From Gelidibacter sp. (lineage in GTDB: Bacteria > Bacteroidota > Bacteroidia > Flavobacteriales > Flavobacteriaceae): a DNA stretch of 64,000 nt. This document shows positions 37,704-44,699 of this stretch, in pieces. Below the pieces are notes generated by a model. The model saw only the letters and a list, made by a program, of their open reading frames with translations. It was not told the DNA's origin and made no database searches. Numbering within the stretch: position 1 is the stretch's first letter; every line of letters begins with the position of its first letter. Location: positions 185 through 64,184 of the forward strand of contig NZ_DATJCY010000077.1 in assembly GCF_035577925.1 (NCBI RefSeq), read 5' to 3'. The position numbers and the translations under genes are program-made.

Positions 37704-39374
<1,671 letters not shown>

Positions 39375-39452
39375 TTGAATTTGTTTATTGTTTGTTTTTG
39401 AAATTTTCTCCAGATAGTTATAGTTATCTAGATTGAGGAAATAATTTTATTT

Positions 39453-39728
39453 CTAGACGATTGCCAAGATGTCGCTTTCGCGCATGATGAGGTAGTCTTT
39501 GCCTTGAAGTTTTAGTTCTGTTCCGGCATATTTTCCGTAAAGAACAGTTTCACCAACTTTTACGGTCATTGGATTTTTTTTGGTACCTGCACCAACGGCA
39601 ACAATTTTTCCTTTTTGAGGTTTTTCCTTAGCGTTGTCTGGAATGATAATTCCTGATGCTGTTTTTGTTTCTGCCTCTACAGGTTCAATAAGAACTCTGT
39701 CTGCCAATGGCTTAATGTTTAATCCCAT
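39453..39728 (-). CDS. groS: Co-chaperonin GroES
   Basis: [37 protein letters not shown]. Confidence 0.99.
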
Positions 39729-39798
39729 AGTTGTATTGTTTGTTTAATTCACGCAATGCGTGATAGGTTAATTATTTTAATTTATTCGGATACAAGAT

Positions 39799-39814
39799 TG
39801 CGAAAAATGTGCCA
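39799..39814 (-). promoter_or_regulatory. Putative sigma54 (-24/-12) promoter of groESL
   Basis: Minus strand TGGCACATTTTTCGCA = GG-N10-GC with TGGCAC core, about 70 bp upstream of groES and just past the secG terminator. Confidence 0.65.
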
Positions 39815-39844
39815 TGAGCACTGAACTGACAAAGTTTCAGTAAT

Positions 39845-39876
39845 AAAAAAGTGCCAACAAAATTGTTGGCACTTTT
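39845..39876 (-). terminator. Intrinsic terminator after secG
   Basis: aaaaaagtgccaac-aaaatt-gttggcactttt. Confidence 0.85.
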
Positions 39877-39903
39877 GATATTTTTTAGATCTATTATTCC
39901 TTA

Positions 39904-40254
39904 TTATTCGTTTGGAGTTTCAGCAGGTGTTACCGGCTCGGTCGTAACTGGTTTAACGGGTGCAGGCATAGTGCTTGTTGCACCAGGATCCAATGCTTTT
40001 GATTCTGAAGTACCAGTTGCACCGTCAATAGCAATGTTTGATACCAATATCAATACCAATAATATTGTTGCTAGAACCCAAGTACTCTTATCTAAAAAGT
40101 CGGTTGTTTTCTTAACACCACCCAATTGTTGGGTTCCGCCGCCTCCAAATGAAGAAGATAAACCTCCACCTTTTGGGTTTTGAACCATGACGACTACCAC
40201 CAATAAAAATGAAACAATGATGATAAGGACTAGAAATATTGTAAACGTACTCAT
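39904..40254 (-). CDS. secG: Preprotein translocase subunit SecG
   Basis: VMVQNPKGGGLSSSFGG...FLDKSTW; two TMs. Confidence 0.95.
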   Translation of the reverse strand: MSTFTIFLVLIIIVSFLLVVVVMVQNPKGGGLSSSFGGGGTQQLGGVKKTTDFLDKSTWVLATILLVLILVSNIAIDGATGTSESKALDPGATSTMPAPVKPVTTEPVTPAETPNE

Positions 40255-40257
40255 GTG

Positions 40258-41202
40258 CTATTTGGTATTATTTTCTTGTAATTGTTTTACCGCTTTAATT
40301 TGGTCTGCAAAGAAACTACTTTTTTCTGGATATTTCAAAATTAATATTTTATAAGATTGAATTGCTTTGTCATAATTTTTTTGCTCTAAATAGATTCTCG
40401 CTAATGTCTCGGTCATTAAACTATCATTTTGGACCAATTTCGGTTTGTCCATATTAATGGTAGGCGTATAGTTTTTAACCGGCTGTATTTTTGGGTTTGA
40501 TTGTATGAACTTATCAATCAAATCGAACTTTTTTTCAAGTGGTGACTCTATTTTTGATTCTTTAATTATCTCCTCTGTCTGAGGTGGCAAAGTACTAATA
40601 GTTTCATCATCCGTTCGACGAATAGGTTTGAAACTCGTAATTGTTAACCATTCTGAAAACGAGCGTGATTCGTTTTTGTCAAATTCCAAAGGTTTGCCAA
40701 TGCCCAATTGTTCTTCGGGCGATGGCTGGATGTTTTTGAAATCAATATCAATAATACTCTGTTCTTGATTGATGTCAGTTGGTTCAGATGGTTTTTTTTC
40801 AAATAAATCTGGATCAAATATGCCTTCACTATCTTGGATATGTTGATCACTAACTACTTCTATCAACACATTTTTGTCCAATGAAATATCATTGGCATCT
40901 TTAACTTCAATGTTTTTTAGTAATTCTGTATTTTGCTTGATGAGTCTCGAAACTTCGTTTTGATTAAATGCTTCGGAAGTTATAAAATCAAATAGAATAC
41001 TTCTATCGGTTGTGTAAGCAGCGGTAACTCTAAGTTCTTGATTGTATTTAAAACTAGCTATTGCTTTTAAACCTTTTAAATAAAGTGCTCTTGCTGGTTG
41101 AAAATAGGGGTACTCTGCAACAATGTCACCAATCGTGGAGGTTTGGTCCGATGACAATTGCTCGGGATGGCTAAGCAGGTATGTAAATTCTTGTTTGTTC
41201 AC
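40258..41202 (-). CDS. Conserved Bacteroidota TPR-containing protein
   Basis: N-terminal YPYFQPARAL...AAYTTDRSILF; C-terminal MTETLARIYLEQKNYDKAIQSYKILILKYPEKSSFFA. GTG 41202 start preferred. Confidence 0.8.
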   Translation of the reverse strand: MNKQEFTYLLSHPEQLSSDQTSTIGDIVAEYPYFQPARALYLKGLKAIASFKYNQELRVTAAYTTDRSILFDFITSEAFNQNEVSRLIKQNTELLKNIEVKDANDISLDKNVLIEVVSDQHIQDSEGIFDPDLFEKKPSEPTDINQEQSIIDIDFKNIQPSPEEQLGIGKPLEFDKNESRSFSEWLTITSFKPIRRTDDETISTLPPQTEEIIKESKIESPLEKKFDLIDKFIQSNPKIQPVKNYTPTINMDKPKLVQNDSLMTETLARIYLEQKNYDKAIQSYKILILKYPEKSSFFADQIKAVKQLQENNTK

Positions 41203-41210
41203 TGTATCAA

Positions 41211-41717
41211 CTACCATTTGCCCAATGTGGCGTTTAAAATATCTTGTGTTATGCGTTCAAAAATTTCGTTGATTGCAGTTTCTTTCTGGCCACCAGTTAA
41301 TTGCGCAGTTCCTGGATAATCATAAAAGAATGAAAATTGTTGATTTAGGTCTTCGTCGGGGTTATTTTTGTCATAATAGCGCAAGCGTACACCAATGGTC
41401 AAGCGGTTTTGAGCAGCAGTATTATCGGCCGTTGCCGTTGTTGGTGAAATGCGGTATTCAGTTATTTCTCCTTCATAAGTGATGTCTCCTCCAGAGGTTA
41501 CCAACTGCAAGCTGGTTTGGTTTTGGATCATATCTGCAAGCATATTTGTAAAAGTACGCTCAATGCCGGGTTCAATTAATGGGGCATCATTTTGAAAATA
41601 GTTAACTTGATATGTTCTGGTGCCAGCTGGTAAAGAAATTCCTGTAAAAGAATAATACCCACATCCTGTAAATATGGTAAGACCAATAATAAGGGCTAAT
41701 GATTTAAGTTTTTTCAC
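41211..41717 (-). CDS. lptE: LptE-family lipoprotein
   Basis: Lipobox FTGC-GYYSFTG; FQNDAPL, YEGEITEY, RLTIGVRLRY, ITQDILNATLGKW. GTG 41717 start preferred over 41795. Confidence 0.8.
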   Translation of the reverse strand: MKKLKSLALIIGLTIFTGCGYYSFTGISLPAGTRTYQVNYFQNDAPLIEPGIERTFTNMLADMIQNQTSLQLVTSGGDITYEGEITEYRISPTTATADNTAAQNRLTIGVRLRYYDKNNPDEDLNQQFSFFYDYPGTAQLTGGQKETAINEIFERITQDILNATLGKW

Positions 41718-41742
41718 TTTTAGTGTTTTGATAACTGATAGC

Positions 41743-43011
41743 TTATAAATCGAATTGTTTGATTTTTCTATATAATGTACGCTCACTAATGCCAAGTTCG
41801 GCGGCGGCTAATTTGCGTTTTCCTTGATGGCGTTCTAATGATTTTTTTATCAATTCCAGTTCTTTGTCATGTAAAGATAAGGTTTCTTCTTCTTCAACTT
41901 CTTCCGCAAAATGGTATTTGTCATTGCGATCTTCATGAATTTCGGAAACTGAATTTGTTTTCTCAGGAATTGACAATACTTCAAAATCTTCGATGGCGCC
42001 ATCATCATAATCTTCAGCTTCGTCACTGCCGTAAATTTTTTGGATCAGGCTTTCATTTTTCTTTTGTACTTCATTAACGTTTCCGCTTTTCATGAGTTCC
42101 ATGGTCAGTTTCTTTAGGTCGTTAAGATCGTTTTTCATATCGAAAAGCACTTTGTAAAGAATTTCGCGCTCACTGCTAAAATCGCTGTCACTTTTTGAAT
42201 TTTTAATTACAGCAGGCAAATTATCACCTTGACTTGGCAAATAGCTATTTAAGGTTGCTGCATTTATGGTTCTGGTTTGTTCTAAGACAGATATTTGCTC
42301 GGCAGCATTGCGCAATTGCCTGATGTTGCCATTCCATCTGTTTTTTAAAAGTACATCAACGGCTTCATCAGTTAACTTAATGGTTGGCATTTTATATTTT
42401 AGAGCAAAATCACTCGCAAACTTTCGGAATAACAAATGGATATCCTCTTTGCGTTCTCTTAACGGAGGCAAATGGATTTCAATAGTGCTCAATCTGTAAT
42501 AAAGATCTTCCCTGAACTTTTCTTTTTTAATGGCTTCAAACATATTTACGTTTGTGGCCGCTACAATTCTGACATTGGTTTTTTGGACTTTACTGGAACC
42601 TACTTTTATGAATTCGCCATTTTCCAAAACACGCAATAAACGAACTTGAGTGGTTAATGGAAGTTCACCAACTTCATCTAAAAAAATAGTACCACCATCG
42701 GCCACTTCAAAATAGCCTTCGCGTGTATTTGTCGCGCCCGTAAATGCGCCTTTTTCGTGACCAAAAAGTTCACTGTCAATTGTTCCTTCTGGTATGGCAC
42801 CGCAGTTAACTGCAATGTATTTGCCATGTTTGCGATGTGATAATTGATGTATGATTTTTGGAATACTTTCTTTACCCACACCACTTTCTCCGGTCACCAA
42901 AACCGAAATATCCGTTGGGGCAACTTGAATCGCTTTTTCAATCGCGCGATTGAGTTTTGGGTCATTTCCAATAATTCCGAAACGTTGTTTTATGACTTGA
43001 ATTGATTCCAT
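41743..43011 (-). CDS. Sigma54-dependent enhancer-binding protein with no N-terminal sensor domain (AAA+ plus Fis HTH)
   Basis: GESGVGKE, FGHEKGAFTGA, FLDEVGE, AATN, FREDLYYRL, WNGNIRQL, AAAELGISERTLYRKIK; AAA+ core starts at about residue 12. Confidence 0.93.
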   Translation of the reverse strand: MESIQVIKQRFGIIGNDPKLNRAIEKAIQVAPTDISVLVTGESGVGKESIPKIIHQLSHRKHGKYIAVNCGAIPEGTIDSELFGHEKGAFTGATNTREGYFEVADGGTIFLDEVGELPLTTQVRLLRVLENGEFIKVGSSKVQKTNVRIVAATNVNMFEAIKKEKFREDLYYRLSTIEIHLPPLRERKEDIHLLFRKFASDFALKYKMPTIKLTDEAVDVLLKNRWNGNIRQLRNAAEQISVLEQTRTINAATLNSYLPSQGDNLPAVIKNSKSDSDFSSEREILYKVLFDMKNDLNDLKKLTMELMKSGNVNEVQKKNESLIQKIYGSDEAEDYDDGAIEDFEVLSIPEKTNSVSEIHEDRNDKYHFAEEVEEEETLSLHDKELELIKKSLERHQGKRKLAAAELGISERTLYRKIKQFDL

Positions 43012-43085
43012 TTTAATATTTAAAGTTATAAATCAAGGATGAATTTTGGGATTTGTGATGAAATAATACCGATAAGTTGGTTTTA

Positions 43086-44528
43086 TTATTGGTCGGCGTA
43101 GCCAACAGCAATGCCAATTAAAGTAGCACTGGTGCAATCTTTTACGTCAACATTTACCAAATCACCAACCTTGTAATGTTCTTTAGGAAAAACCGCTACA
43201 ATGTTTTGCGATGTTCTTCCTGACCACTCTTGATCTGATTTTTTTGATTCGCGTTCAATCAAAACTTCAACCGTGGTATTCAAATAGGCTTTTGTTCTGA
43301 TTTCGCTATGTTCTCTTTGCAATTGGACAATATCATCCAAGCGTCTTTTCTTTACTTCTTCAGGAACGTCATCTTCCAGTTTGCGCTCGGCCAAAGTGCC
43401 CGGACGCTCGGAGTAGGTAAACATATAGCCAAAGTTATATTTTACATAGTCCATTAAGCTTAAGGTATCTTGATGGTCGGCTTCAGTTTCTGTCGGGAAT
43501 CCTGCTATCATATCTTGTGAAATGGCGCACTCAGGGATTATACGTCTGATGTTGTCTATCAATTCAAAATATTCTTCCCTAGTATGCAATCGGTTCATTT
43601 CTTTGAGAATACGATTGCTGCCGCTTTGCACGGGTAGGTGGATATGTTTACATATGTTTTTATGTTTTGCCATGGTTTCGATCACGTCCAAAGTTAAATC
43701 TTGCGGATTGGAAGTTGAAAACCGAATGCGCATTTTTGGATAGGCTTTTGCACATAAATCCAACAAGTTAGAAAAATTAATAGCTGTTGCTTTTTGGATA
43801 TCGCTCGCTTTTTCAAAGTCTTTTTTCAATCCGCCGCCATACCATAAATAGCTGTCCACATTCTGGCCTAACAACGTGATTTCTTTAAAACCTTTGTTCC
43901 AAAGATCATGGACTTCTTCTAAAATACTTTGCGGGTCCCTGCTGCGTTCGCGACCACGAGTGAACGGCACCACGCAAAATGTGCACATATTATCACAGCC
44001 TCTGGTAATGGATACAAAAGCCGAAACACCATTGCTGTTCAATCGAACCGGTGAAATATCACCATAAGTTTCATCTTTACTTAAAATGACGTTAATAGCA
44101 TCTCGACCTTCGTCAACTTCCGCCAATAAATTGGGGAGGTCTTTGTAAGCATCCGGGCCAACAACAAGATCTACTATTTTTTCTTCTTCTAGAAGTTTGC
44201 TTTTTAAACGTTCGGCCATACATCCCAAAACGCCTACTTTCATTTTTGGATTACTGCGTTTTACAGCATTGAATTTCTCCAATCGTTTTCGGATGGTCTG
44301 TTCTGCTTTGTCCCTAATGGAACAAGTGTTGATTAAAACCAAATCGGCATCTTCTAATTTTTCTGTAGTGTTGTAGCCTTCTTTATATAATATGGAAGCC
44401 ACGATTTCGCTATCGCTAAAATTCATGGAACAGCCGTAGCTTTCAATAAAAAGCTTACGTTGATTTTCTTTTTTTTGTTCGAGTATGAGATGTTCGCCTT
44501 GCTTACTTTCTATAATAATCTTTTCCAT
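43086..44528 (-). CDS. miaB: tRNA-2-methylthio-N6-dimethylallyladenosine synthase
   Basis: SYGCSMN, NTCSIRDKAE, GCDNMCTFCVVP, GRERSR, C-terminal TRAM domain. Confidence 0.97.
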   Translation of the reverse strand: MEKIIIESKQGEHLILEQKKENQRKLFIESYGCSMNFSDSEIVASILYKEGYNTTEKLEDADLVLINTCSIRDKAEQTIRKRLEKFNAVKRSNPKMKVGVLGCMAERLKSKLLEEEKIVDLVVGPDAYKDLPNLLAEVDEGRDAINVILSKDETYGDISPVRLNSNGVSAFVSITRGCDNMCTFCVVPFTRGRERSRDPQSILEEVHDLWNKGFKEITLLGQNVDSYLWYGGGLKKDFEKASDIQKATAINFSNLLDLCAKAYPKMRIRFSTSNPQDLTLDVIETMAKHKNICKHIHLPVQSGSNRILKEMNRLHTREEYFELIDNIRRIIPECAISQDMIAGFPTETEADHQDTLSLMDYVKYNFGYMFTYSERPGTLAERKLEDDVPEEVKKRRLDDIVQLQREHSEIRTKAYLNTTVEVLIERESKKSDQEWSGRTSQNIVAVFPKEHYKVGDLVNVDVKDCTSATLIGIAVGYADQ

Positions 44529-44583: not shown

Positions 44584-44617
44584 CAAAGATATGATTATTT
44601 TTAATGATTGTGACAAA
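44584..44617 (-). promoter_or_regulatory. sigmaA promoter of the miaB operon (-7 TATCTTTG; -33 TTTG)
   Basis: CAAAGATA at 44584-44591 and CAAA at 44614-44617 (22-bp spacer). Confidence 0.55.
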
Positions 44618-44699
44618 GTGACAGTGTATAAAAATGTTTTGATAATGTTAAAAAATTATGTTTTCTTTGAGCCCAAACTACCTATAAAATAATTACACA

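Follow-up and report, generated by a model that had tools for sequence, protein, structure and literature searches.

A sigma-54 promoter at groES of Gelidibacter, a phase-locked TGWCA box at chaperone genes and a candidate sensor-less activator

According to our analysis, the groES-groEL operon of Gelidibacter sp. carries a sigma-54 type promoter and, exactly 12 nt upstream of it, a short dyad of TGWCA half-sites that recurs in the same register at other chaperone genes. We consider it probable that this promoter, the regulon to which it belongs, an HTH_8 enhancer-binding protein (bEBP) placed on the box near -45 and the autoregulation of that protein constitute one circuit. To our knowledge, the regulator that switches on the heat-shock genes of Bacteroidota has not been named, and the literature that we searched holds neither a named heat-shock bEBP of this phylum nor a mention of the TGWCA box. 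Sigma-54 control of chaperonin genes is itself already published, and the Gelidibacter promoter joins a known kind; relative to the literature searched, what is likely to be new is the phase-locked box together with the sensor-less activator that probably belongs to it. Positions given without a contig name are those of the window, i.e. of the whole 64-kb stretch of DNA that was analysed, and the features described with them lie on its minus strand.

The promoter, TGGCACATTTTTCGCA (39799-39814), has a GG-N10-GC structure, with GG at 39813/39812, GC at 39801/39800 and a spacing of exactly 10 nt, and it departs from the sigma-54 consensus by one mismatch, TCGCA instead of TTGCA. Reading along the minus strand, the secG stop codon is followed by a terminator (39876-39847), the box CTGAAACTTTGTCAG (39840-39826), 12 nt, the promoter, 70 nt and the groES ATG (39728), which opens groES (39453-39728; Pfam Cpn10, E 1.5e-34) and, behind it, groEL (37704-39329; Pfam Cpn60_TCP1, E 1e-77). 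A preliminary description of this DNA had proposed a TGGCAC-type GG-N10-GC element, insulated from secG by a strong terminator, in a spacer lacking TAnnTTTG and CIRCE, and all of these points hold: the coordinates and sequence of the element are correct, the terminator is an intrinsic one with a 13-bp stem, a 4-nt loop and a T run, and TAnnTTTG, TAnnTTG and CIRCE are all absent from the secG-groES spacer (39729-39903), in which a sigma-70 consensus scan gave nothing relevant. Transcription is predicted to start at 39787-39788, 12-13 nt downstream of the GC. The genome encodes rpoN (PF04552 match on C210, E 9.9e-52) together with five full-length PF00158 proteins, i.e. bEBPs.

Taken alone, the -24/-12 motif is not above chance within the window, where TGGCAY-N5-TNGCW has 1 match against 0.56 expected and at least one match appears in 44 of 100 shuffles; its significance comes from the context. 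When 15 genomes of the genus are aligned, the 16-nt promoter is invariant except for one base in one genome, and the start region and the 10 nt between box and promoter vary. An ECF-type reading of the GAAACTT in the box was rejected, its would-be -10 region being a variable part of the same alignment. With one genome taken per genus, TGGCAY-N5-T.G was found upstream of groES in nearly all of the 16 Flavobacteriales genera sampled and also in the other sampled orders of Bacteroidia. Since the motif is exact and intergenic, has no competing sigma-A box or CIRCE, is conserved in Flavobacteriales and in other orders of Bacteroidia and is accompanied by rpoN, we are highly confident that groES has a sigma-54 promoter.

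The RNA data, which are contigs assembled from four metatranscriptome runs, bound the 5' end of the groES transcript and do not map its start. Contigs matching groES perfectly end at 39778, 39764 and 39758, which is 10-30 nt inside the predicted start; none covers 39792-39975, and neither the promoter nor the terminator is crossed by any. The genes secG and groES occur on separate RNA contigs, with a depth of 7.6 vs 120 in one run. These ends are compatible with a start near 39787-39788 and with an effective terminator.

The 5' UTR of groES, of about 60 nt, holds an element at 39749-39773 that came out of the genus alignment, namely AATTAACC (39773-39766), invariant in the genus, followed by a hairpin of 6-7 bp, TCACGCAtTGCGTGA (39763-39749). 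Across the 15 genus genomes 96% of the cells of this hairpin are paired, vs 13-60% in slid controls, and compensatory changes occur at two pairs (UA to CG in 6 genomes). The element was not seen outside the genus, and an Rfam search of 39000-40500 at permissive thresholds gave matches at chance level only, among them no known thermometer or leader. Conceivable roles of the element are stabilisation of the mRNA, processing or temperature sensing. As a separate observation, the secG terminator stem, TGCCAAC..GTTGGCA, is found in all genomes of the genus (39847-39876 here, loci L003-L015 elsewhere), and its pentamers TGCCA/TGGCA equal the half-sites of the boxes at htpG and grpE, which is probably a coincidence.

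The box at groES (CTGAAACTTTGTCAG, 39826-39840) has the core TGAAACTTTGTCA at 39827-39839, of the form TGWCA-N3-TGWCA, and lies 12 nt upstream of TGGCAC; the near-palindrome of TGACA-N3-TGTCA type noticed earlier at 12 bp from the promoter is thus borne out to the nucleotide. Counting from a start at 39788, its centre is at about -45, and the 16-nt box region is invariant in the 15 genomes of the genus. Within the window the pattern of box plus TGG has 1 match vs 0.51 expected, and it is the whole genome that gives it weight. There are 150 boxes TGACA-N3-TGTCA there (at most 1 mismatch, both strands), and TGGCA comes exactly 12 nt after four of them, vs about 0.09 expected; each of these four precedes a chaperone gene: groES (TGAAACTTTGTCA), dnaK (TGACACCTTGTCA), htpG (TGCCATCTTGTCA) and grpE (TGACATTTTGGCA). 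A targeted look at clpB added TGACTTTTTGTCC, 12 nt and then TGGTAA, so that five promoters have the box at an identical spacing. The same four box promoters are present in every genome of the genus, and in 31 related genomes the joint pattern of box and promoter occurs about 100 times, vs about 10 times for a reversed control, i.e. about tenfold more often. As a half-site TGWCA reads alike on both strands, which accounts for the occurrence of direct boxes (TGTCA..TGTCA) as well as inverted ones (TGACA..TGTCA). We think it very probable that the box is the site of a specific regulatory protein.

Not every copy keeps the same geometry. The hsp20 gene has its box, TGACATAATGTCT, 43 nt and not 12 nt upstream of TGGCA (C147:6422-6493), at the clpC-like gene the distance is 22-23 nt, and lon gives a weak match only. 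At dnaK a second box stands 22 bp further upstream, centre to centre (TGTCAAAGTTTTA and TGACACCTTGTCA; C147:19952-20020). Both the 22 bp between the dnaK boxes and the 31 nt extra at hsp20 are near whole helical turns. Three further intergenic boxes (C1:16888-16930, C34:20275-20330 and C160:1456-1502) have a weak TGG..-N..-TTG 11-19 nt on and precede two unannotated ORFs of about 250 aa and a UbiE/MenG methyltransferase gene; they may be further members of the regulon or chance matches.

A sigma-54 regulon of chaperones had been suggested on the basis of the groES promoter, and this suggestion stands as far as the motif is concerned, which we find at dnaK, htpG, grpE, lon, hsp20 and clpB; its newness does not stand, such a regulon having been published already. 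In the whole-genome scan, we collected intergenic motifs that had no more than 1 mismatch and lay within 300 nt of a gene, and the downstream ORFs were annotated without preselection. This motif-first procedure returned DnaK, HtpG, GrpE, Lon and Hsp20 in addition to GroES; ClpB, which passes the TIGR03346 cut-off, and a ClpC-like gene, probably a member too, came from a targeted inspection. The strict pattern TGGCAY-N5-T.GC had to be relaxed, since the -12 element is here often TTGAC or TTGAA and the majority of the chaperone promoters escape the strict form. In the scan that had been recommended for dnaK, clpB, grpE, lon and htpG, a -24/-12 element was found at all five and the box at 12 nt at all except lon. 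Beside this set, TGGCACATTTTTTTCT (C17:4703-4718) is separated by 35 nt from a downstream 103-aa ORF without a Pfam match, located directly upstream of another bEBP gene (C17:3308-3802), and this may be a separate small sigma-54 unit.

Start sites have been mapped in Flavobacterium psychrophilum by Guerin et al. (2021, ISME Commun, PMC9723704), where the motif SM4 equals the sigma-54 -24/-12 consensus and SM4 promoters were assigned to groES-groEL, lon, dnaK, grpE-dnaJ, htpG, skp and clpB. Gelidibacter shares with it the SM4 gene set and the order bEBP, lptE, secG, groS, groL; F. psychrophilum is another genus, and the mapped starts are its own, whereas the start given here is predicted. The box can be read in the published sequences as well: in Table S2 of that paper the groS promoter, AAAaaatgtcagttttaaatccTTGGCATAATTTCTGAAAAG..., has TGTCA, 12 nt and TGGCA, and the clpB promoter, ..ACATTTTGTCC, has a TGTCC half-site, 12 nt and TGGAAT. 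Its authors do not mention a box or palindrome; they list three PF00158 proteins and suggest distinct activators for distinct co-expression clusters, with no activator assigned. A later survey (PLoS One 2025, PMC12316311) reports an enrichment of predicted sigma-54 promoters at GroEL, GroES, DnaK, DnaJ, GrpE, IbpA, Lon and Clp, highest in Flavobacteriia, then in Bacteroidia and Cytophagia. Its analysis deals with promoters only, and the passages found by a term search describe no enhancer motif, spacing or cognate bEBP for the chaperone genes.

Upstream of groES on the same strand there is a gene cluster (39904-44528) of miaB (43086-44528, its first gene), a bEBP gene (41743-43011), lptE (41211-41795), a gene of a TPR protein (40258-41217) and secG (39904-40254). 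The bEBP, which we propose as the candidate activator, has no N-terminal regulatory or sensory domain; its AAA+ domain begins at residue 13 (PF00158, E 7.8e-68), and GESGVGKE and FLDEVGE (Walker A/B) and GAFTGA can be read in the translation. A conserved helical segment (about 276-328) is followed by an acidic variable linker (about 329-363) and by HTH_8 at 383-420. The segment at about 276-328 does not vary among 14 orthologs, which come from about 10 genera of the family and are 86-92% identical to the protein overall. The protein scores below the cut-off of every NCBIfam equivalog, and the source databases give it generic names only; by the names of its homologs the genome belongs in or near Gelidibacter. 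A PDB sequence search covered only the AAA+ core, with no match to residues 263-383, and an AlphaFold model built with 14 close homologs was unusable (mean pLDDT 43.8, pTM 0.26), the linker being not interpretable in it.

Several lines of evidence tie this HTH_8 protein to the box. In 26 of the 30 genomes that have both genes, which represent 13 families, its ortholog and groES share a strand, with the ortholog 2-3.2 kb upstream; in the other four the genes are on different contigs (three genomes) or a contig end cuts the locus (one). This synteny is mostly lost outside Flavobacteriales. An unbiased genome scan returned a second box in the window, TGTCACTTTGTCA (44611-44623), which overlaps the -33 region of a sigma-A type promoter upstream of miaB, whose -7 box, TATCTTTG, follows 19 nt downstream; the box is present at this promoter in 17 of 20 relatives (10 in the genus and 7 in 7 further genera). 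A box was also looked for directly upstream of the bEBP start codon, and none was found there. The other bEBP conserved across the order, a 387-aa protein with REC and AAA+ domains and GAFTSA (C253:10265-11428; L042:1081-2244), has no DNA-binding domain and so cannot itself read a box, which leaves the HTH_8 protein as the only conserved bEBP with such a domain. Two complete genomes of 1.6 Mb have kept rpoN, with the groES-linked activator as their only bEBP; one of them has box and -24/-12 element at groES, and the other (G020, locus L022) has no recognisable element or box, which speaks against the proposed circuit. With groES linkage, the box at the miaB promoter, the lack of a DNA-binding domain in the REC-AAA+ protein and the retention of a single bEBP in these two genomes in its favour, we hold with moderate confidence that the HTH_8 bEBP binds the box; as there are five bEBPs in the genome, assignment by neighbourhood is not a proof.

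We propose the following mechanism. Sigma-54 polymerase would form a closed complex at 39799-39814 and transcribe groES-groEL from near 39787-39788, as one unit of a protein-quality-control regulon that also comprises dnaK, grpE(-dnaJ), htpG, clpB, lon, hsp20 and probably the clpC-like gene. A dimer or a higher oligomer of the activator would sit on the TGWCA dyad about one turn upstream of -24, on a fixed face of the helix, and the long linker would allow its AAA+ ring to reach sigma-54 at -12 without DNA looping, ATP hydrolysis then opening the promoter. Classical bEBP enhancers are located 80-150 bp upstream and act by looping, and the present dyad, centred near -45 at a fixed 12-nt spacing, lies much closer. 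This speaks against the proposed mechanism, as do the lon and hsp20 boxes, weak or differently spaced. An unusually proximal activator site, as proposed in the preliminary description, is all the same a plausible reading of this arrangement.

PspF and NtrC autoregulate through sites at their own promoters, in PspF overlapping its sigma-70 promoter, and we infer that the box at 44611-44623, which overlaps the -33 element of the activator operon's own sigma-A promoter, would serve autoregulation in a similar way. Because the protein has no sensor domain, the signal must arrive otherwise; as a speculation, heat or unfolded protein may be signalled in trans, by titration of a chaperone as in PspA-PspF, or may be perceived by the helical segment.

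PspF of the E. coli psp system is one of the closest likenesses, being sensor-less, with an N-terminal AAA+ domain, a C-terminal HTH and a stress regulon, and the AAA+ domain of the Gelidibacter protein aligns from position 1 of the PspF profile. The score of 269.6 bits is below the cut-off of 443.55, and the protein is unlike PspF in having a conserved insert of 100 residues, helical and acidic, before the HTH. The two systems also differ in geometry, with the box centre near -45 here vs -80 to -126 with IHF for PspF, and in that PspF has the inhibitor PspA, to which we identified no counterpart here.

The most serious alternative to activation by the HTH_8 protein keeps the sigma-54 promoter and gives the box to some other protein, such as a heat-shock repressor or a small factor gating the activator, with the REC-AAA+ protein or another bEBP as the activator. 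Fixed phasing is met more often with repressors and with sigma-70 class I/II activators; the -45 position and constant spacing would suit a repressor or class I activator, and the overlap of the miaB box with a sigma-A -33 element is likewise a repressor-like position. The REC-AAA+ gene is located about 4-7 kb from the box and sigma-54 promoter of grpE(-dnaJ) here and in at least 14 related genomes, and activators without a DNA-binding domain work enhancer-free in Helicobacter and Chlamydia; the REC-AAA+ protein may activate the chaperone promoters, or other sigma-54 promoters, independently of an enhancer. We nevertheless regard this alternative as unlikely: no gene that is a candidate for such a repressor is linked to the regulon, the box stands at the promoter of the very operon that encodes the HTH_8 bEBP, the two genomes with a single bEBP retain just the one bearing an HTH, and a repressor is less needed at sigma-54 promoters, which cannot act without an activator and are silent in its absence.

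Much less probable is that the box is an architectural element, a bend, an HU/IHF-like site or an UP-like contact of the alpha subunit, which aids the closed complex. Its fixed distance from -24, its A/T-rich centre and its presence at what would be the most highly expressed sigma-54 promoters would agree with such a role, yet the conserved letters are those of the G/C-containing TGWCA half-sites and not of the A/T centre, a sigma-A promoter has this dyad too, placed differently, and the non-chaperone sigma-54-like sites that we examined by eye (an OEP gene and T9SS cargo genes) have no box there. That groES has only a chance -24/-12 match and owes its transcription to another promoter, for example an ECF-type one with GAAACTT as its -35, or to read-through from secG, is hardly credible: one match in 64 kb is what chance would give and GAAACTT does resemble ECF -35 elements, but TGGCACATTTTTCGCA is invariant in the genus and its motif conserved across orders, the homologous start site has been mapped in F. 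psychrophilum, and the strong terminator is crossed by no RNA contig.

The activation of groES by the HTH_8 protein, as favoured here, may also be compared with the HrcA/CIRCE system, to which it is similar as a dedicated cis-control of the groESL operon. HrcA represses a sigma-70 promoter, whereas here activation would go through sigma-54, and the CIRCE sequence TTAGCACTC-N9-GAGTGCTAA is absent upstream of groES. The other classes of the phylum were sampled with 15 groES loci, of which 8 have a canonical CIRCE (L064-L069, L071, L075) and the other 7 a -24/-12 element, e.g. TGGTACGGTAGTTGCA (L063, L070, L072-L074, L076, L077). This mixture indicates that heat-shock control has switched between HrcA and sigma-54 within the phylum. 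The presence of the bEBP ortholog, set against CIRCE and sigma-54 genomes across the phylum, does not give a clean profile.

We may go one step further and propose, tentatively and with slightly less than even confidence, that the HTH_8 activator serves Flavobacteriales, and probably much of Bacteroidia, as master heat-shock regulator, that it would act from -45 without looping and repress itself through the box, and that its signal would come from the helical segment or from a titratable chaperone. Bacteroidota make up a major part of the communities of gut, soil and sea. The evidence points to one gene (41743-43011) and one 13-bp operator, which makes the question of their heat-shock control testable at the bench. 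The fixed -45 geometry, if true, would be an unusual working mode for an enhancer-binding protein. If the master-regulator reading is true as well, these bacteria would have a fifth bacterial heat-shock circuit, beside those of sigma-32, HrcA, CtsR and HspR, with a defined regulator and a defined operator.
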